Assembly (NCBI GenBank): GCA_045595605.1
Contig: JAZOAS010000133.1
Coordinates: forward strand, 1-38,208
Direction of reading: 5' to 3'
DNA: 38,208 nucleotides
Source: Eubacteriales bacterium
GTDB lineage: Bacteria > Bacillota > Clostridia > Oscillospirales > JAAYXM01
The translations under genes and the position numbers were made by a program. Within the stretch, counting starts at the first letter, position 1. The number at the start of each line of letters is the position of its first letter. Shown here one piece after another: positions 5,786 through 14,280 of this stretch. The notes under the pieces are model-generated. The model saw only the letters and a program-made list of their open reading frames with translations. It had not been told where the DNA came from and ran no database searches.

Positions 5786-6229
5786 ATGAAGAAGACGATT
5801 ATATGCGTTGTTTGTGTAATAATTGGGGTGATTCTTCTTCGCTTACCGTATCAGATAAATGATCGTGCTTGCTTGGAATATAGAAAAGAAATCGAAGCAA
5901 GCTTTATAGATATGCCGGAAGTTGCGGTTTTGCAAGTGGTCAGCGGTTGTGGAAACAGTAGCGGAACAGGGGATCATACTGATTTATATGTTGCTGTTTT
6001 AGTCGAAACCGGTTTGGATAAGGAAAATCTCGAAAAGGAAATTTCTGACATCGCCGAAATACACGATGTTCGCGAAACTGGTGACAAAACCTTTGCAATG
6101 GATATGATAGATTTAAGCTTTGAAGAAGAAAACTATACTGATAATGCAAATTACTATATTATTGAGTTCTTAAAAGAGTCTCCGTTTGCAGGAACACCGC
6201 TTTCTGCGTTGGATCTGAGGGGATGTTGA
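5786..6229 (+). CDS. Hypothetical N-terminally anchored or secreted protein
   Basis: SD AGGAG. MKK plus hydrophobic N-terminus, acidic body; no family recognised. Confidence 0.75.
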   Translation: MKKTIICVVCVIIGVILLRLPYQINDRACLEYRKEIEASFIDMPEVAVLQVVSGCGNSSGTGDHTDLYVAVLVETGLDKENLEKEISDIAEIHDVRETGDKTFAMDMIDLSFEEENYTDNANYYIIEFLKESPFAGTPLSALDLRGC

Positions 6230-6238
6230 GCATTGTAG

Positions 6239-7117
6239 TTGAACGGGGTGAGGGCATTGATTCAAAAGTATATCTTATTTGCAATAATTGTCGCTGTGTT
6301 AGTTTTGATAATCATCTGGATAGTTTATGGCAATACGGCATTAGAGATAAAAACAATCAATGTTTCAGCCGAAAATTTGCCGAAAGGCTTTGACGGATTC
6401 AGAATAGCGCAGATATCAGATTTGCACAACACTGAGTTTGGAAAGGATAACGAAAAATTGGTTTCTGCATTAAAAGAAACAAAAACTGATATAATTGTGA
6501 TTACGGGAGACATTATAGATTCACGAAGGACAAATATAGACAAAACACTTCGTTTTGCAGACGAGGCGGCAAAGCTTGCACCCGTGTATTATGTGAACGG
6601 AAATCATGAAGCAAGGCTTGTTGAAACTGAGTATGATCGCTTAATAGAAGGGCTTAAGAATGCAGGGGTAAAAGTTCTTGAAAATGATGTTGAGGAAATA
6701 TCAGTCGGAGATGAAGTGATAACACTTATCGGGATAAATGACCCGAAGTTTCCGATGAAACTTGTTGATGATGCGATTGAGCAAAATATAGAACATCAGC
6801 TTATGAGCGTTGTTCCTTCAAATGATAATTATAAGGTGCTTTTAGCTCACCGACCTGAATATTTTGATGTTTATGCAGATAAGGTAGATCTCGTCTTTTC
6901 AGGGCATGCCCACGGCGGACAGTTTATTGTCCCGTATATAGGTGGAATTCTTGCCCCTGGACAAGGTTTAATGCCAAAGTATTATGACGGTATTTATGAT
7001 AAGGGAAAAACGAAGATGATAGTAAGCCGCGGACTTGGTAACAGCATTTTCCCGTTCAGAATAAACAACAGACCTGTTGTGGTTGTGGCGGAACTTAACA
7101 TGTTAACCATAGCATAG
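6239..7117 (+). CDS. Membrane-anchored metallophosphoesterase (YkuE/YaeI-like)
   Basis: SDLH, TGD, GNHE, LAH, SGHAHGGQ, VSRGLG motifs; N-terminal TM helix. Start may be TTG 6257. Confidence 0.9.
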   Translation: MNGVRALIQKYILFAIIVAVLVLIIIWIVYGNTALEIKTINVSAENLPKGFDGFRIAQISDLHNTEFGKDNEKLVSALKETKTDIIVITGDIIDSRRTNIDKTLRFADEAAKLAPVYYVNGNHEARLVETEYDRLIEGLKNAGVKVLENDVEEISVGDEVITLIGINDPKFPMKLVDDAIEQNIEHQLMSVVPSNDNYKVLLAHRPEYFDVYADKVDLVFSGHAHGGQFIVPYIGGILAPGQGLMPKYYDGIYDKGKTKMIVSRGLGNSIFPFRINNRPVVVVAELNMLTIA

Positions 7118-7129
7118 GAGGGCAGTTTT

Positions 7130-7942
7130 ATGCTCGTAGATTTTCATACACACATATTTCCGGACGCCATTGCCCCAAGAGCGATGGAGAAGCTTGCATA
7201 CGCAAGCGGCGGGCTTGTTCCCCAAACTGACGGAACAGTTTCTTCGCTAAAGCGCGAAATGGAAAGAGACGGTGTTGATATTTCGGTCGCACTTTCTATT
7301 GCGACAAATGCAAAACAGCAGACAAATGTAAATAATTTTGCAAAAGCGGTAAACGACGGGAAAACGGTTTTCGCTTTCGGCTCAGTACATCCTGATGCGG
7401 AAAACGCGCTCGACGAGCTTGAGCGCATAAAGGATATGGGGCTTAAGGGTGTCAAGTTTCACCCTGAGTATCAGAAGTTTTATGTTGACGATGAGAAGAT
7501 GAAGCCCATTTACAAAAAAATTTCGTCGCTCGGGCTTATAACTGTTTTTCACGCGGGATATGACTACGGCTATGCACCGCCTTATCACTGTATGCCGGAC
7601 AATCTTCTCGGCGCATTGAAGTGGTTTGATTCACCCGTAATCGCCGCGCATTGGGGTGGCGTAACCTGTGGAGCAGAGGTTATAAAAAAGCTTTGCGGAA
7701 GAGATGTATGGTTTGATTTATCCTTTGGCTACGGTACAATGCCAAAGGCGATAGCGCAGGAGATTGTCGAGAAGCACACGCCTGGCAGACTCCTTTTTGC
7801 GTCCGATATGCCGTGGCACAGACCGTCCTGGGAAAAGAGGCTTATAGAAACTCTTGATATCTCGCAGGACGATAAGGATAAAATCTATTATAAAAACGCG
7901 TTTGAATTATTGAACATCTCAAAAAGGACGGATGAGGCATGA
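7130..7942 (+). CDS. Amidohydrolase-2 family metal-dependent hydrolase
   Basis: DFHTH, GVKFHP, FHAG, AAHWGG, LFASDMP. SD AGGAGG. Confidence 0.88.
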   Translation: MLVDFHTHIFPDAIAPRAMEKLAYASGGLVPQTDGTVSSLKREMERDGVDISVALSIATNAKQQTNVNNFAKAVNDGKTVFAFGSVHPDAENALDELERIKDMGLKGVKFHPEYQKFYVDDEKMKPIYKKISSLGLITVFHAGYDYGYAPPYHCMPDNLLGALKWFDSPVIAAHWGGVTCGAEVIKKLCGRDVWFDLSFGYGTMPKAIAQEIVEKHTPGRLLFASDMPWHRPSWEKRLIETLDISQDDKDKIYYKNAFELLNISKRTDEA

Positions 7943-9096
7943 CAGAGCGTCTTTATGAAAAAAATCAATATATGAGCGAATTTTCGGCAGAGGTTATATC
8001 GTGTACCGAAAACAACGGCCTGTACGGTGTTGTTCTTGATAAAACTGCTTTCTTTCCTGAGGGTGGTGGACAGGCTCCCGACAAAGGAACGATTGACGGT
8101 GTTTCCGTCGTCGATGTTCAGATGAATGACGGAGTTATTCTCCATAAGGTTAATTCTCCTTTCAAGGTTGGTCAGATTGTCTCTGGAAAGATAGATTTTC
8201 CTCTTCGTTTTTCGCGCATGCAGCGCCACTCGGGAGAGCATATCCTTTCGGGAATTGTGCATAAAAGGTTTGGATATAACAATGTCGGTTTTCATATGAG
8301 TGAGACCGAGATGACGGTTGATTTTGACGGCGTTCTTACTCAATCTGACATCGAAGCTACTGAAAAGGAAGTTAACTTTACAGTATGGAAAAACCTTGAA
8401 ATCAAGGCGTTTTTCCCGACTGACGAAGAAACACAGTCAATAGAATACAGAAGCAAGCTTGAGAACATCGAAAACCTCCGTCTTGTGACGATTGAGGGTG
8501 TTGACTGTTGCGCGTGTTGCGCGCCGCATGTCGCAAGAACGGGGGAAATCGGGCTTGTCAAGATAATTGATGCGACCCCGAACAAGGGAGGGACACGCCT
8601 TACAGTTCTTGCGGGTGAGGTTGCAATTTCTGACTATGCGCGCCTCAATCTTGCAACGAAGCAGATGATGAAAACGCTCTCCGTATCGCGCGACGAGGTT
8701 GCGGATTCCGCAAAGCGTCAGGTTGACCTTGTGGGCGCGCTCAGGTATGAAAACGAAGAGCTAAAATGCCGTCTTGCGTGGAGTGAGCTGAAGCCGAAAA
8801 AGGTAAACGGCGCAACACTCGCATTTTGTGAAAAGCTTTCCTATGAGGAGCTAAGGTATTGTTCAAACAAGCTCTCAGAAGGGGGAAGCGAGCTTAATTT
8901 TCTTTTCTCAAGTGAAGACGGAGAGAATTATATCTATGTAATAAGCAGCACAAATCGCGACATAAAACCGATTGTAAAGAGTGTAAATGATGCGCTTGAC
9001 GGTCGTGGCGGCGGAAAGGGAAATTTCGCGCAGGGGAAAATCGTTTCCGATTCAACAGAGGAAATAGAAAACTTTTTGAAAGAGATTTTAGGATAG
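7939..9096 (+). CDS. AlaX-type aminoacyl-tRNA editing protein with C-terminal DHHA1 domain
   Basis: TAFFPEGGGQ, HSGEH (HxxxH), CCAPH (CxxxH), GRGGGKG. ATGA overlap with the upstream gene. Confidence 0.9.
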   Translation: MTERLYEKNQYMSEFSAEVISCTENNGLYGVVLDKTAFFPEGGGQAPDKGTIDGVSVVDVQMNDGVILHKVNSPFKVGQIVSGKIDFPLRFSRMQRHSGEHILSGIVHKRFGYNNVGFHMSETEMTVDFDGVLTQSDIEATEKEVNFTVWKNLEIKAFFPTDEETQSIEYRSKLENIENLRLVTIEGVDCCACCAPHVARTGEIGLVKIIDATPNKGGTRLTVLAGEVAISDYARLNLATKQMMKTLSVSRDEVADSAKRQVDLVGALRYENEELKCRLAWSELKPKKVNGATLAFCEKLSYEELRYCSNKLSEGGSELNFLFSSEDGENYIYVISSTNRDIKPIVKSVNDALDGRGGGKGNFAQGKIVSDSTEEIENFLKEILG

Positions 9097-9099
9097 GTT

Positions 9100-11727
9100 A
9101 TGAAACAGATTGCGGCGGGAATCCTTGCTCATGTTGACGCCGGAAAGACAACGCTCTCCGAGGGGCTTTTATACACCGCGGGGGAGATACGAAGGCTCGG
9201 CAGAGTAGATGCAAGGGACAGCTTTCTTGACACAAATGAAATAGAGCGAAAAAGGGGTATTACCATTTTTTCAAAGCAAGCGGTTATTACTTTGAAAAAC
9301 TCGGTGATAACTCTTCTTGACACGCCCGGACATGTGGATTTTGCGGCAGAGGCAGAGAGAACTCTCTCTGTGCTCGACTATGCGATTCTCGTGATAAGTG
9401 CGACTGACGGCGTTCAGAGCCATACAAAGACCTTGTGGGAAATGCTTGAACGGCACAAACTTCCGGTTTTTGTTTTTATAAACAAAATGGACCTTGCAGG
9501 TAGTGATAAAGCTTCGGTTATCGAGAATCTGAAAGCCGAGTTTGGCGGAAACTTTGTAGATTTTACAGAGAGTCGCGAAGCAGTTTCGGAAAACCTTGCC
9601 GTATGTGATGAAGCTCTTATGGAGGAGTTTCTTGAAGGTGCGCTCTCCGAGGAAAGTGTTGCAAAGGCTATACGAAAGAGAAGTGTATTTCCGTGCTTTG
9701 CTGGTTCCGCGCTTAAAATGGAGGGGGTTGAAGGCTTCCTCAACGCGTTTGATATGCTCATTCGTGAAACTCCTGCAATGCAGGAGTTCGGCGCGAAGGT
9801 CTTCAAGATAAGTCAGGATGACAAGGGAAATCGCCTTACATTCATAAAGGTCACGGGCGGAAGCCTTAAGGTGCGAAATACAATCGAATCCGAAAAGGGA
9901 TTAAACGAAAAAGTCAACGAAATTCGCATTTATTCCGGAGAGAAATACAGAACGGTGGACGAGGCGCTACCGGGATGTGTATGTGCGGTGACAGGGCCGA
10001 AAAAGACGGTAGCGGGGCAGGGGCTCGGGTTTGAAAAAAAGGCGCTTGAGCTTACCGCTGAGCCGATATTTTCCTACCGCGTAATTCTTCCCAAGGGCGT
10101 TGACCCGACTGTTGCTCTCGGGAAGTTCAAGGAACTTGAGCAGGAGGAAACCCAGCTTCGTGTCAGCTGGAGCGAACAGCTTCGCGAGATTCAGTTAAGG
10201 CTTATGGGCGAGATTCAGCTTGAGGTTTTAAAACAGCTTATCCTTAAACGCTTTGATATGCCTGTTGAGTTTGAGGAAGGGCGTATCGTATATAAAGAGA
10301 CTATTGAGAACACGGTTGAGGGTGTTGGCCATTTTGAACCGCTTCGCCACTATGCCGAAGTGCATCTCGTTCTATCGCCGCTTTCTAAAGGGGCGGGAAT
10401 GCAGTTTGAGGTTGACTGCCCCGAGAGCGTTCTTGATAAAAATTGGCAGAGGCTTGTCCTCACTCACCTTATGGAGAAACAGCATGTCGGCGTCCTGACA
10501 GGCTCGCCGATAACCGATATAAAAATAACGCTCAAGACGGGTGCTGCGCACATAAAACATACCGAGGGTGGAGATTTCCGTGAGGCGACATACCGCGCGG
10601 TGAGAAATGGTCTTATGCGCGCGCAGTCGGTTCTCCTTGAGCCGTATTATCACTTTGTGATAGAGCTTCCGCCGATAAACCTCGGTCGTGCGATGACCGA
10701 CCTTGAGCTTCTGGGCGCTGAATTCTCTATGGACCGTCACAGTGGCGACAAGGCAAAAATAGAGGGCAGAGCGCCTGCCGCGGCGATTCGCAACTACCAG
10801 CAGGAGATAACCGCTTACACTCGCGGTGAGGGGAGAATCTCGTGCGCGTTTGACGGCTACGGCAAATGCAAAAACGCTGATGAGGTCATAGAGAAAATTG
10901 GCTATAACGCAGAGTCTGATGTCGAAAATACCGCAGACTCCGTTTTCTGTGCACATGGCGCAGGGTTTAATGTAAAATGGTACGATGTCGAGGAGTATAT
11001 GCACCTTGAAAGCGTGCTCAAGCCAAAGGTGACAGAAAGTGAAAAAACTCGCTCAAGAAACTTCCACGCGTCTGAAGATGAGCTTATGGAAATTTTCGAG
11101 AAGACCTACGGAAAAATTAAGCGCAGGCTTCCGTCTGATGACGTGCCCGTAAAAAGAGACGAGCCGGCAAAGGAGTTCAAACCTCGCCCGCAGAATAAAG
11201 GCGAGAAAAGCTATCTTCTCATTGACGGCTTCAACATCATTTTTGCGTGGGATGAGATGAAAAAGATTGCCGAAAAGAGCCTTGAAGAGGCGCGAGAGAC
11301 GCTTATCTTAAAGCTTTCGGTTTATAATGTGTTTACTGATTATGAGATAATTTTAGTGTTTGACGCGTACAAGGTAAAGGGCAACCGCGGTGAGGTAGAA
11401 ACTGACCACGGAATCACAGTTGTTTATACAAAAGAAGCGCAGACGGCAGACGCCTATATCGAAAAAGCCGCGCGCACTCTTTCCCGTCAGCATAAGGTAA
11501 CTGTTGCAACCTCGGACAGACTTGAGCAGATGATTATTTTCGGAAGCGGTGCATACCGACTTCCTGCAAGTCATCTTGAGCGCGAGATAAGAAATATAGA
11601 AAGCTCGGTTACGGAAACCGTCAAGGAGCATAACCTTAAAACAGACAGTAAAGTTTTCTCGGAAGACTTTGCTGAAAAACTGCTTGAATGGCAGAGGAGA
11701 AATTCCGCTTGCGAAGATAATGATTAA
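9100..11727 (+). CDS. Tet/EF-G-like translational GTPase fused to a C-terminal NYN (YacP/Rae1-like) RNase domain
   Basis: G1 AHVDAGKTT, G2 RGITI, G3 DTPGH, G4 NKMD, LLEPY. C-terminal LLIDGFN, VFDAY, TADAYIE, VATSD. Confidence 0.9.
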   Translation: MKQIAAGILAHVDAGKTTLSEGLLYTAGEIRRLGRVDARDSFLDTNEIERKRGITIFSKQAVITLKNSVITLLDTPGHVDFAAEAERTLSVLDYAILVISATDGVQSHTKTLWEMLERHKLPVFVFINKMDLAGSDKASVIENLKAEFGGNFVDFTESREAVSENLAVCDEALMEEFLEGALSEESVAKAIRKRSVFPCFAGSALKMEGVEGFLNAFDMLIRETPAMQEFGAKVFKISQDDKGNRLTFIKVTGGSLKVRNTIESEKGLNEKVNEIRIYSGEKYRTVDEALPGCVCAVTGPKKTVAGQGLGFEKKALELTAEPIFSYRVILPKGVDPTVALGKFKELEQEETQLRVSWSEQLREIQLRLMGEIQLEVLKQLILKRFDMPVEFEEGRIVYKETIENTVEGVGHFEPLRHYAEVHLVLSPLSKGAGMQFEVDCPESVLDKNWQRLVLTHLMEKQHVGVLTGSPITDIKITLKTGAAHIKHTEGGDFREATYRAVRNGLMRAQSVLLEPYYHFVIELPPINLGRAMTDLELLGAEFSMDRHSGDKAKIEGRAPAAAIRNYQQEITAYTRGEGRISCAFDGYGKCKNADEVIEKIGYNAESDVENTADSVFCAHGAGFNVKWYDVEEYMHLESVLKPKVTESEKTRSRNFHASEDELMEIFEKTYGKIKRRLPSDDVPVKRDEPAKEFKPRPQNKGEKSYLLIDGFNIIFAWDEMKKIAEKSLEEARETLILKLSVYNVFTDYEIILVFDAYKVKGNRGEVETDHGITVVYTKEAQTADAYIEKAARTLSRQHKVTVATSDRLEQMIIFGSGAYRLPASHLEREIRNIESSVTETVKEHNLKTDSKVFSEDFAEKLLEWQRRNSACEDND

Positions 11728-11746
11728 TGGGAGAATGGTGTCAGAT

Positions 11747-12889
11747 ATGAAGAAGATTGTTGTCGCGATAGACTCCTTCAAGGGAAGCCTATCAACTTTT
11801 GAAGCGGGGAGCGCAATAGAATCCGCAGCAAAAGAGGTTTTTGAGGATATTGAAGTTGTAATATCCCCGATTGCAGACGGCGGCGAGGGAACTGTTGACG
11901 CCATAATCTCGGCGACAGGTGGAGAGCTTTTCGAGGCGGAGGTCTCAAACCCGCTCGGAAAGAGAATAAAAGCAACTTACGGATTTATAAAAGAAACAAA
12001 AACTGCGATTATCGAGATGTCAGCCGCGGCGGGGATTACGCTTATAGGAGAGTGTGAGAGAAACCCGATGAATACAACGACCTACGGTGTCGGGGAGATG
12101 ATACTTGACGCAGTTTCAAAGGGAGCGCGTAAGTTTCTTATAGGAATCGGCGGAAGTGCGACGAATGACGGCGGTATTGGCATGCTCAAGGCTCTCGGTT
12201 TTGAGTTTCTTGATAAGGACGGACGCGATATTCCGCTCGGCGCAAAAGGGCTTTCTGTTCTTTCGGAAATCAGGATAGCGCGGGCGAATGAAATCCTAAA
12301 GGAGTGCTCATTCTCGGTCGCGTGTGATGTGAAAAATGTTTTGTGCGGGGAGACCGGTTGCAGCGCAGTTTACGGTCCTCAGAAGGGCGCAACTCCCAAG
12401 ATGATAAAGGAAATGGATGAGGCGCTTTTAAAATATGCAGAGCTCACAAAAAAGATAATTCCTCAGGCAGACCCCGACAGGGAAGGTGCAGGCGCGGCAG
12501 GCGGAATGGGCTTTGCGCTTATGTCATATCTTAATGCAAGCCTCCAGTCAGGTATTGAGCTTGTGATGAAAGAAACGGGTCTTGATGAGCATGTAAAGGA
12601 TGCAGACCTTGTAATAACCGGCGAGGGTAGGCTTGACGGACAGTCGTACATGGGCAAAGCTCCGATAGGAGTTGCGCGCCTTTCAAAAAAACATAATAAG
12701 CCTGTTATCGCGTTTTCAGGTTGCGTAACAGAAGACGCGCATCTCTGCAACGACCACGGGATAGACGCTTTCTTCCCGATTGTCAGAAAGCCGTGCACGC
12801 TTGAAGAGGCAATGGATATAGAAAATGCAAAAAAGAATTTAAAAGAAACGGCAATTCAGGTCTTAAGACTTATTAATACAAAGTTTTAA
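11747..12889 (+). CDS. glxK: Glycerate kinase
   Basis: DSFKGSL, PIADGGEG, GGSATNDGG, GAAGG, TGEGRLD. Start placed at MKKIVV. Confidence 0.93.
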   Translation: MKKIVVAIDSFKGSLSTFEAGSAIESAAKEVFEDIEVVISPIADGGEGTVDAIISATGGELFEAEVSNPLGKRIKATYGFIKETKTAIIEMSAAAGITLIGECERNPMNTTTYGVGEMILDAVSKGARKFLIGIGGSATNDGGIGMLKALGFEFLDKDGRDIPLGAKGLSVLSEIRIARANEILKECSFSVACDVKNVLCGETGCSAVYGPQKGATPKMIKEMDEALLKYAELTKKIIPQADPDREGAGAAGGMGFALMSYLNASLQSGIELVMKETGLDEHVKDADLVITGEGRLDGQSYMGKAPIGVARLSKKHNKPVIAFSGCVTEDAHLCNDHGIDAFFPIVRKPCTLEEAMDIENAKKNLKETAIQVLRLINTKF

Positions 12890-12903
12890 GGGGAGAAAGT
12901 AAT

Positions 12904-14280
12904 ATGTTTTCTTGCGACACAATGATAGTCAATGCGTCCCATTCGGCATACGGGAAAAACATTTTGGCTAAAAACAGCGACAGACCTACGGGAGAGCCGC
13001 AACCCCTGTGCTATTACGAGGGAAAAACCTATTCTGAGGGCGAAACGGTAAAGATAACCCATTCGGAAATTCCGCAGGTCAGAAAGACCTATTCCGTTGT
13101 TGGCTCAAGACCGTACTGGATATGGGGCTTTGAGATGGGCTACAACGAAAAAGGCGTTGTAATAGGTAACGAGGCAGAAGGCTCGCGTTCAGAGCCCGAG
13201 AAAGAAGACGGAATTCTGGGAATGGACCTTCTCCGCCTTGCGCTTGAGCGTGCGGCAACGGCAAGGGAAGCGATTTCCGTTATCACAGGCTTGCTCGAAA
13301 AATACGGTCAGAAGGCAAATGCGAATCCCTTGATGGCAAAAACCTACGAAAATAGCTTCATAATTTCCGATAAAGATGAATGCTGGGTTTTGGAAACTGC
13401 GGGGCGCCAGTGGGCGGCGAAGCAGATAAAAACCGTGCAGGGAATTTCAAACTGCTATTCAATCAGGCAGGAAATGGATATGGTATCTGCAAATGCTGAG
13501 AAGATAGCGAGGGAAAAACGCTGGCTCCTGCCGGATGAGCCTTTTGACTTTGCAAAGGCGTATTCCGGAAGGCTTGTCGCACAGCCATTGGGAGTACAGA
13601 GGTTCAGAAGGCTTAATAAGCTTCTTGGCGAAAAAGAAACCCATAGCTTTGAATCTCTTGCAAGTATTCTGCGCGACCATTTTGACGGTGAAATTATATC
13701 TGAGAGGTTTGGCGAAACTTCGGGGACCTTTATGAGTATCTGTATGCATATGCGCGATTGGGCAGAGAGTGAAACCTCTGCATCGCTTCTTGCCCGTTAT
13801 GATGACGAGCTTGGAATAATTGCACGATATGCTCCGGTACAGCCGTGTCTTTCAGCGTATATTCCGGTATATATGGTAGGACCATTGCCTTCGAAAATGG
13901 AGACTGCGGAAAAGCTTTTTGACGAGAATTCGCTTTGGTGGCAGGTTAAACTCCTGAGCCTTCTCGTTACGGTTGATGAAGACGCGTATGCAGATGAGGT
14001 GAGAGTAAAGCTTAAAGAGCTTGAAAAAACATTTTCCGAAAAGGCGGAAAAAGCCGAGGATAAAGCGCGCGAGCTTATCAGAGACGGAAAGAGAAATGAG
14101 GCAAACTCTCTTTTATATTCCGTCACAGAGGAATGTACAGAGGCGCTTTACAATTTTGCGAAAGAGGAAGGCGCGCGTGTAGGTGAAAGCATAAAGGCCA
14201 AAGGCGGGCTCTACGGCAGACAGAAGGAAGCGATTGAAAAGTATTTCGATTATGCCAAAGTGCCGTGGAGTGAAGCTTAA
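12904..14280 (+). CDS. Peptidase C69 / secernin-like Ntn hydrolase
   Basis: N-terminal CDT nucleophile, AKNSDR, WGFEMGYNEKGV, GMDLLRLALER. Confidence 0.88.
   Translation: MFSCDTMIVNASHSAYGKNILAKNSDRPTGEPQPLCYYEGKTYSEGETVKITHSEIPQVRKTYSVVGSRPYWIWGFEMGYNEKGVVIGNEAEGSRSEPEKEDGILGMDLLRLALERAATAREAISVITGLLEKYGQKANANPLMAKTYENSFIISDKDECWVLETAGRQWAAKQIKTVQGISNCYSIRQEMDMVSANAEKIAREKRWLLPDEPFDFAKAYSGRLVAQPLGVQRFRRLNKLLGEKETHSFESLASILRDHFDGEIISERFGETSGTFMSICMHMRDWAESETSASLLARYDDELGIIARYAPVQPCLSAYIPVYMVGPLPSKMETAEKLFDENSLWWQVKLLSLLVTVDEDAYADEVRVKLKELEKTFSEKAEKAEDKARELIRDGKRNEANSLLYSVTEECTEALYNFAKEEGARVGESIKAKGGLYGRQKEAIEKYFDYAKVPWSEA

Follow-up and report, generated by a model that had tools for sequence, protein, structure and literature searches.

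The window analysed here is a stretch of 38,208 nt from a bacterium of the Eubacteriales (contig JAZOAS010000133.1 of GenBank assembly GCA_045595605.1), and the element in question is one open reading frame (ORF) with an ATG start, at 9100-11727 on the forward strand, that encodes an 875-residue protein. This protein joins a translational GTPase, similar to EF-G and to the Tet ribosomal protection proteins, through a charged tether to a nuclease domain of the Rae1 (YacP) type. We propose that the fusion is a Rae1 that a GTPase delivers to stalled or collided ribosomes, where it cuts mRNA, a reading to which we give a probability of roughly 0.55. Its computational basis consists of the architecture, the motifs preserved in each half, a single fusion event, strict complementarity between the fusion and free Rae1, and an autonomous GTPase subfamily. 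The gene is a member of a known, catalogued and uncharacterised fusion family: in the available excerpts of the two papers, the Tet-like/NYN_YacP fusion is already recorded by Atkinson 2015 (BMC Genomics, PMC4342817), and a TetM-like/NYN_YacP fusion in some Clostridia is noted, with its role called unclear, by Matelska et al. 2017 (NAR, PMC5499597). An earlier note on this DNA had singled out the fusion as being of interest; that it is uncharacterised stands, but given these two records it had not gone unnoticed.

The features of the gene, all of them on the forward strand, are as follows.

9100-11727, +: the whole ORF, with Tet/EF-G-like GTPase, tether and Rae1-type NYN nuclease (875 residues plus stop; from the ORF and Pfam domains).
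9090-9093, +: AGGA, Shine-Dalgarno-like, 6 nt before the ATG and overlapping the end of an AlaX-like gene (stop codon 9094-9096); read directly from the sequence.
9112-9762, +: G domain, residues 5-221 (Pfam GTP_EFTU, E 3.7e-49), with P-loop G15-K16-T17, D74-T75-P76-G77-H78 and N-K-x-D (K129, D131).
9787-10275, +: domain II (EF-G_D2, residues 230-306, Pfam E 2.2e-08) and domain III (EFG_III, residues 341-392, weak at 18.2 bits, under the 27-bit Pfam cut-off); also from the Foldseek alignment with EF-G.
10279-10626, +: domain IV (EFG_IV), residues 394-509 (Pfam E 4.1e-17), the conservation peak of the protein.
10540-10599, +: tip loop of domain IV, residues 481-500, the subfamily signature G481-A-A-H484-I-K486-H487-T488-E-G490-G491-D492-F493-R494-E-A496-T497-Y498-R499-A500.
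10630-10875, +: domain V (EFG_C), residues 511-592 (Pfam E 6.3e-15).
10876-11019, +: C-terminal module of the GTPase, residues 593-640, a predicted helix, hairpin and helix, with Y602, S614, F616, C617, G620 and W627 invariant.
11020-11208, +: tether, residues 641-703, of low model confidence, charged and poorly conserved apart from one short helix.
11062-11115, +: conserved tether helix, S655-K672, with the pattern D/E-E-L-L/M-x-I-F-E-x-T-Y-G-K (L662, I665 and G671 at least 90% conserved; helix 659-670 in the model).
11215-11691, +: NYN_YacP (Rae1) nuclease domain, residues 706-864 (Pfam E 1.1e-47), with D709, D755, D784 and D806, aligned to PDB 5MQ8.

The anatomy that the earlier note had drawn (875 residues, G motifs, domains II to V, a charged linker and an NYN domain) is borne out by Pfam, by alignment and by the coordinates: the domain IV tip does begin at nt 10540 with residue 481 (GAAHIKHTEGGDF), the NYN domain spans nt 11215-11691, and a domain scan with hidden Markov models matched GTP_EFTU, EFG_IV and NYN_YacP alike. 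The C-terminus is indeed NYN_YacP, with Pfam PF05991 scoring 162.6 bits against a gathering score of 24.6 and covering profile positions 1-164 of 166, and the same set of domains is found in all 120 of the relatives listed. An AlphaFold model built from a 48-sequence alignment (mean predicted local distance difference test score, pLDDT, 79.6; predicted template modelling score 0.56) has a confident EF-G-like body, then a small extra module at 593-632 (helix, hairpin, helix), then stretches with pLDDT below 50 at 642-659 and 669-701 separated by one short helix, and finally the NYN fold at 704-843. When the whole model was searched with Foldseek, EF-G chains were aligned over about 680 columns (E about 1e-52), a match to the EF-G fold only. 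A complex prediction of the GTPase half (1-640) with the tether and NYN domain (650-850) scored 0.00 and returned no answer.

EF-G and the Tet proteins bind the factor site of the ribosome, where the large subunit switches on their GTPase via a conserved histidine. The corresponding G motifs of the fusion (G15-K16-T17, D74-T75-P76-G77-H78, K129 and D131, with H78 as the catalytic histidine) are invariant in an alignment of 48 family members that are 47-84% identical to the window protein. The nuclease half retains I708-D709-G710-F711-N712, V753-F754-D755, T782-A783-D784 and T804-S805-D806, just as the earlier note had written its acidic catalytic set (IDGFN, VFD, TAD, TSD). D709, G710, N712, D755, D784 and D806 are invariant in the same 48 members, position 711 is Y or F, and the motifs line up with those of Bacillus subtilis Rae1/YacP (PDB 5MQ8, E 5.5e-30). 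Conserved aspartates with a G-Y-N-type motif after the first of them are described as a YacP feature in the available excerpt of Matelska 2017 (PMC5499597). Both enzymatic halves therefore look intact, as far as conserved motifs can tell. The most conserved part of the fused family is domain IV, in which 25-residue windows average 0.88-0.90 against 0.5-0.7 elsewhere, and the tip of this domain is invariant across fused forms, as would be expected if it touches ribosomal RNA that is itself invariant. Conserved Cys and His residues (C590, C617, H635 and often H619; window residues 590-636, nt 10867-11007) lie in the C-terminal module of the GTPase, and many unfused relatives of the GTPase end in M-H-C; it is a matter of speculation that these residues could form a metal site.

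The tether is constrained in length. Between H635 and D709 the window protein has 42% charged residues (K/R/D/E), the family median being 0.34, and the length of this segment runs from 61 to 112 residues with a median of 76, 62 of 71 members falling within 66-82. The constrained length, taken with the conserved helix, suggests a tether that carries a docking element, not a mere spacer.

The distribution of fused and free Rae1 points to a shared role. The genome to which the window belongs (a 1.63-Mb assembly, 87% complete) contains one NYN_YacP match, namely the fusion, and two EFG_IV matches, the fusion and a canonical 691-aa EF-G; the fusion is thus this organism's sole Rae1. Within the taxonomic family, NYN_YacP occurs in 6 of 32 genomes, every time in a frame of 871-895 aa. 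Within the order it occurs in 88 of 301 genomes (55 of 150 genera), with one match each, and 87 of these frames are at least 833 aa long, the remaining one being 292 aa. Across the class Clostridia, 263 of 400 scored genomes carry NYN_YacP, 259 with one match and 4 with two; the 150 rows listed comprise 63 frames of 169-216 aa (free), 84 of 844-934 aa (fused) and 3 between (313, 351 and 734 aa). In three of the four two-match genomes the second match is sub-threshold (about 21 bits), and in the fourth one gene is split over two contig ends, so that no genome with both a fused and a free Rae1 was found among the 263 carriers. This mutual exclusivity, quantified here for the first time, supports a role shared by the two forms.

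The family is also large. A scan of species-representative genomes confirmed the fusion in 381 of 401 candidate stretches, under labels that include Oscillospiraceae, Ruminococcaceae, Lachnospiraceae, Congzhengia, Pygmaiobacter massiliensis and Ruminococcus flavefaciens, and clustering at 50% identity puts the family at about 140 clusters or more. Scores in that 50%-identity library run from 634 to 937 bits for the best 150 representatives, most of them with a length of 830-1000 aa; shorter NYN relatives, considered as free or split forms, turned out to be mostly contig-cut pieces of fused proteins and were not used as evidence. The nearest relatives of the window protein (83-84%) come from animal-gut assemblies. 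Three fusion loci are labelled Barnesiella, Anaerovibrio or Flexilinea (L064, L070 and L077). Two of them, L064 and L070, sit on very short branches beside other fused loci, L064 next to an Oscillospiraceae-labelled one, while L077 is a partial match and was left out of the GTPase tree; mis-binned contigs seem more likely here than transfer across phyla. At another locus (L071 6001-8601) the fusion homologue has one internal stop codon and could be a pseudogene or an assembly error.

Trees of both halves are compatible with a single fusion event, a result that is new here. In the NYN tree (85 fused and 30 free rows), a quick search needed two changes of state, but a tree in which the 85 fused rows were held together was better than the freely searched one (log-likelihood +48.4, p-value of the approximately unbiased test, p-AU, 0.967), so one fused clade is not rejected. 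The free Rae1s nearest to the fused group come from genomes G546 and G590. Both lie in the classical operon of cysS, mini-III, rlmB and rae1, and the idea that they are split genes was rejected, since each is a genuine free rae1 in that operon. The GTPase tree (48 fused rows, 24 unfused, one tet gene and EF-G) places all 48 fused rows in one clade, with a support of 100 in the Shimodaira-Hasegawa-like approximate likelihood ratio test, beside the 24 unfused; the window protein falls inside this clade. The branch that sets all 72 fused and unfused rows apart from Tet and EF-G has a support of 86 (not starred), which becomes 98 for the branch uniting 71 of the 72 without the long-branched L150. 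Both trees are quick ones, with long outgroup branches and flagged compositional heterogeneity.

As the unfused rows indicate, the GTPase half also occurs by itself. Genome G546, for example, has a free Rae1 and a separate GTPase of about 663 aa that is 46% identical to the fusion over residues 3-637 and ends just past the C-terminal module. Unfused GTPases of this kind (about 635-665 aa) end straight after that module, and over residues 395-640 the fused and unfused forms are 43-52% identical. They have in common a first domain IV loop (G-x-G-H-F/Y-E-P-L-R-H-Y-A-E-V-H), a domain IV tip (H-x-K-H-T-x-G-G-D-F/L/I-R-E-A/S-T-Y-R-A) and the C-terminal module with S-V/I-F-C-x-K/H-G-x-G, three features that neither a tet control nor EF-G has. 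Compared with an unfused member, the known protection proteins Tet(M), Tet(O), Tet(S), Tet(W) and TetB(P) reach 28-31.5% identity and EF-G 26-27%; TetB(P) was considered as a possible unfused member and rejected, its 31.5% being like that of Tet(M). On these comparisons the GTPase half forms a distinct subfamily, as distant from the Tet proteins as from EF-G, and its recognition as a separate subfamily that is also found unfused, with or without a Rae1, is new. Within the window's family, congeneric species alternate between the fused type and the unfused one (unfused loci L152-L164). Searches with tblastn (46-55% identity) placed further members of the subfamily on Monoglobus, Agathobacter and Paenibacillus replicons and on large plasmids of Ligilactobacillus salivarius. 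The L. salivarius megaplasmids (H3-H25, including UCC118) match residues 1-637 at 46-47% and are annotated as TetM/TetW/TetO/TetS family; this match is probably the unfused subfamily in a lactobacillus.

How might such a protein work? Domain IV of EF-G and of the Tet proteins enters the decoding centre. By analogy with them, the N-terminal 640 residues of the fusion would dock at the ribosomal factor site and insert the invariant domain IV tip into the decoding centre, where the tip would probably read a stalled ribosome state. The flexible tether of about 70 residues would meanwhile hold the Rae1-type NYN endonuclease, allowing it to cut nearby mRNA on stalled or collided ribosomes; the cut would destroy the problem message and free the queued ribosomes for rescue. 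The fusion would then take over the job that free Rae1 performs in B. subtilis, with recruitment made GTPase-dependent, and we infer that GTP gates the nuclease. That mRNA would be the substrate and collisions the trigger follows from the behaviour of the B. subtilis enzyme. In the available excerpts of the Rae1 literature, that enzyme depends on ribosome collisions and cleaves mRNA at a preferably cytosine-poor position 8-12 nt upstream of the stalled ribosome's A-site codon, as opposed to within the A site, handing the queued ribosomes over to tmRNA. Every substrate mapped so far in those excerpts is an mRNA with translation-dependent cleavage.

Several observations weigh against this proposal. 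As given in those excerpts, free Rae1 cuts where the mRNA leaves the stalled ribosome, a long way from that ribosome's factor site, so the fusion would have to dock on the trailing ribosome or cut elsewhere. Perhaps the GTPase sits on the collided ribosome behind, the mRNA entry of which is turned towards the cut site; in a second geometry, the fusion would cut at a position other than that of free Rae1. The GTP-driven delivery of a nuclease proposed in the earlier note fits the mutual exclusivity, the single fusion and the autonomous GTPase subfamily, but its geometry must be rethought because Rae1 acts at the trailing edge. Moreover, the unfused GTPase accompanies free Rae1 in 10 of 63 free-Rae1 genomes and is missing from the other 53, and it also occurs, in a frame of 634-664 aa (one cut at a contig end), in 13 of the 32 genomes of the window's family, all of them lacking NYN_YacP. 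The rest of these 32 genomes are the 6 fusion carriers, in which the fusion is the sole match, one with a 137-aa fragment and 12 with no match. The GTPase can thus be present without Rae1 and is mostly absent beside free Rae1, which means that the two activities do not need each other; a GTPase that lives without any Rae1 should have a ribosomal function of its own. In-match stop codons occur in 24 of the 88 order rows (1-2 stops each) and in 12 of the 84 long class rows. A search for SmpB in the 87%-complete genome of the window came back empty; its presence in 22 of the family's 32 genomes, 4 of the 5 other fusion carriers among them, counts in favour of the proposal. There is no conserved neighbourhood that ties the gene to rescue genes, as clusters of flanking ORFs reach at most 9 of 79 loci (an ABC ATPase). 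Finally, searches of the full-text literature found no functional study of the fusion, in agreement with the earlier note, which had known of none. The available excerpts of recent Rae1 papers do not contain the terms 'EF-G', 'TetM', 'GTPase' or 'Clostridi', and use 'fused' and 'fusion' for constructs only.

If the fusion does not deliver a nuclease to mRNA, it might instead be a ribosomal protection protein that dislodges tetracycline or another decoding-centre antibiotic, with the nuclease as an accessory. This is how the database label would be read: close relatives are labelled 'TetM/TetW/TetO/TetS family tetracycline resistance ribosomal protection protein' or 'GTP-binding protein' in public sources, the automatic labelling that the earlier note had anticipated. 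A resistance role involving the RNase activity is also raised in the available excerpt of Atkinson 2015 (PMC4342817). The best NCBIfam match is tet_protect (NF012153), the best PDB sequence matches are TetO (4.6e-73) and TetM (1.7e-69), and an alignment with the genome's own EF-G shows that the fusion, like Tet, lacks the long G-domain insertion of EF-G, as well as its H-D-V-D-S-S domain IV tip. The tet_protect score, however, is 397 bits, half of the curated cut-off of 775, and the NCBIfam M/W/O/S tetracycline model gives 284.5 bits against a cut-off of 1100, whereas a tet(W)-class gene used as positive control (locus L073) passes both (824.9 and 1293.3 bits). The EF-G model TIGR00484 is likewise not reached (272.7 bits against 659.4), and unfused GTPases, at 417-448 bits, also stay under the tet_protect cut-off. 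In the structural literature on TetM and TetO, the YSPVST loop of domain IV takes part in drug displacement. This loop reads G-L-Y-Y-S-P-V-S-T-P-A-D-F-R in TetO and in the tet control, G-S-Y-H-D-V-D-S-S-E-M-A-F-K in the genome's own EF-G, and G-A-A-H-I-K-H-T-E-G-G-D-F-R in the fusion, so the observation in the earlier note that the tip is not YSPVST holds against both TetO and the control; the loop of the fusion is unlike that of a true Tet protein (GLYYSPVSTPADFR) and that of the genome's own EF-G (GSYHDVDSSEMAFK). An altered tip, with H-x-K-H-T-E-G-G-D in place of the tetracycline-site loop, could of course suit a different drug. Against any acquired resistance stand the low identity of Tet proteins to the unfused subfamily, the position of the gene amid housekeeping genes with no mobile element, and its presence as one copy per genome, complementary to rae1. 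By the tests run, all of them comparisons of sequence, the fusion is not a tetracycline protection protein, and protection from a drug of any kind is in our view quite unlikely. In one relative (L073, 5941-10354, labelled Allofournierella massiliensis An912) a truncated fusion gene even sits beside a true tet gene, which also speaks against protection. The fusion homologue there stops at 617 aa, just short of the C-terminal module, and the tet(W)-class gene (639 aa, with the YSPVST loop) begins about 640 nt downstream; an NYN remnant was not found in the 13.8-kb locus, and it looks as if a tet-bearing element had landed in the fusion gene.

Two further alternatives keep the nuclease at the centre. 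The first, that it cuts rRNA or tRNA to retire, recycle or mature ribosomes in a GTP-dependent manner, follows the original prediction of rRNA or tRNA processing for YacP. Free rae1 lies beside mini-III, which acts in 23S maturation, and an rRNA methyltransferase gene (available excerpt of Matelska 2017, PMC5499597); domain IV would place the protein by 16S rRNA and tRNA; and a GTPase that occurs without Rae1 would suggest that its main business is the ribosome, not mRNA decay. The mapped substrates of B. subtilis Rae1 described above, all of them mRNAs, and the complementarity with free Rae1 argue instead for the same class of substrate, and a long flexible tether is better suited to an mRNA beyond the subunit interface than to rRNA at one fixed place; we regard this alternative as unlikely. 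The other, an anti-phage or stress-triggered abortive system in which the GTPase would sense hijacked ribosomes and the nuclease would stop translation, was an option in the earlier note. Nuclease-NTPase fusions are frequent in defence systems, and the fusion is patchy in the window's family (6 of 32 genomes), but alternation with the unfused GTPase, which 13 of the 32 carry, accounts for this uneven spread. PADLOC families gave no match, the best-conserved neighbour is the ABC ATPase cluster mentioned above, hardly a defence-type neighbourhood, and the mutual exclusivity of fused and free Rae1, each genome having one copy that complements a housekeeping gene, resembles a housekeeping replacement. 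The anti-phage option is therefore without support, and we consider it very improbable.

A GTPase-delivered Rae1 thus remains the reading that we prefer. A bolder version of it, which we offer tentatively and would not bet on, is that the GTPase half belongs to an unrecognised Bacillota family of translational GTPases that recognises stalled ribosomes, with a C-terminal module of its own and an invariant probe for the decoding centre that is likewise its own (H-x-K-H-T-x-G-G-D-F-R). A single capture of Rae1, long ago, would then have created a GTP-gated, single-chain collision nuclease that replaced the free GTPase as well as the free Rae1 in a large part of the gut Clostridia. In that case the fusion would be a natural Rosetta stone for the delivery of Rae1 to collided ribosomes, and the unfused GTPase would be a new ribosome-rescue factor. 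In 2025-2026, according to the available excerpts, Rae1 was recognised as a collision-sensing nuclease that feeds trans-translation in Gram-positive bacteria, with a structure still awaited by the authors. Much of gut Clostridia has Rae1 only as the tail of a predicted ribosome-docking GTPase, and the fusion would offer a ready-made, structurally tractable recruitment module that points to a GTPase subfamily also working alone. In addition, many thousands of these genes in gut metagenomes are automatically labelled as tetracycline resistance, which would inflate resistome counts; by the curated thresholds tested here, they fail.

The gene lies within a long run of co-directional, unrelated housekeeping genes, including subunits of a 2-oxoacid:ferredoxin oxidoreductase, a phosphoesterase and an amidohydrolase, with a glycerate kinase gene downstream. 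Directly upstream, at 7939-9096 on the forward strand, is the gene for an AlaX-like trans-editing protein (C-terminal part of tRNA-synt_2c, tRNA_SAD and DHHA1), which ends 3 nt before the start of the fusion. A translation-quality operon of AlaX and the fusion was considered and dropped, as the adjacency occurs in 2 of 79 related loci, the two closest relatives. A scan of 6000-13200 for promoters and terminators stayed at the level of shuffled sequence (11 versus 8.8, standard deviation 3.4, and 9 versus 8.1, standard deviation 2.7). Elsewhere in the same genome are a MutS2-like gene (Smr domain, 796-aa frame) and an RqcH-like gene (NFACT_N), which also count in favour of the reading that we prefer. 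Its mini-III gene (L130, contig C135) stands alone, the cysS, mini-III, rlmB and rae1 operon seen at L128 and L129 not having been kept.

How does the fusion compare with systems already described? It differs in no essential way from the known clostridial Tet-like/NYN_YacP fusions, having the same architecture and the same taxonomic home; those fusions were recorded in about ten species, with function left open, in the available excerpts of Atkinson 2015 and Matelska 2017, and now comprise the clusters, at least about 140 in number, counted above. With Rae1 (YacP) of B. subtilis (PDB 5MQ8/5MQ9) it shares a full-length NYN_YacP domain, the catalytic aspartates and D-G-(Y/F)-N, and its NYN domain is 35-51% identical to free clostridial Rae1s. 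Rae1 itself is a free protein of about 170-180 aa, typically encoded in the cysS, mrnC and rlmB operon, whereas in the fusion the NYN domain makes up the last fifth of an 875-aa GTPase whose gene has unrelated surroundings. Tet(M), Tet(O) and Tet(W) are likewise five-domain translational GTPases with intact G motifs and without the long EF-G insertion, but the fusion has another domain IV tip, a conserved module of about 50 residues in place of the short Tet C-terminus, a nuclease and a chromosomal housekeeping context. EF-G resembles it in overall fold, catalytic His and G motifs, and differs by the G-domain insertion and the H-D-V-D-S-S tip, both of which the fusion lacks. The unfused GTPases of the subfamily agree with it in domain IV signature and C-terminal module but have neither tether nor nuclease. 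The closest functional parallel may be with the SMR-domain collision nucleases SmrB, Cue2 and NONU-1, in which an endonuclease is recruited to collided ribosomes, likely the same logic as in the fusion; the Rae1 authors, in the available excerpts, draw this analogy for free Rae1. Their nuclease fold, however, is unrelated to NYN, and they are recruited without a GTPase.

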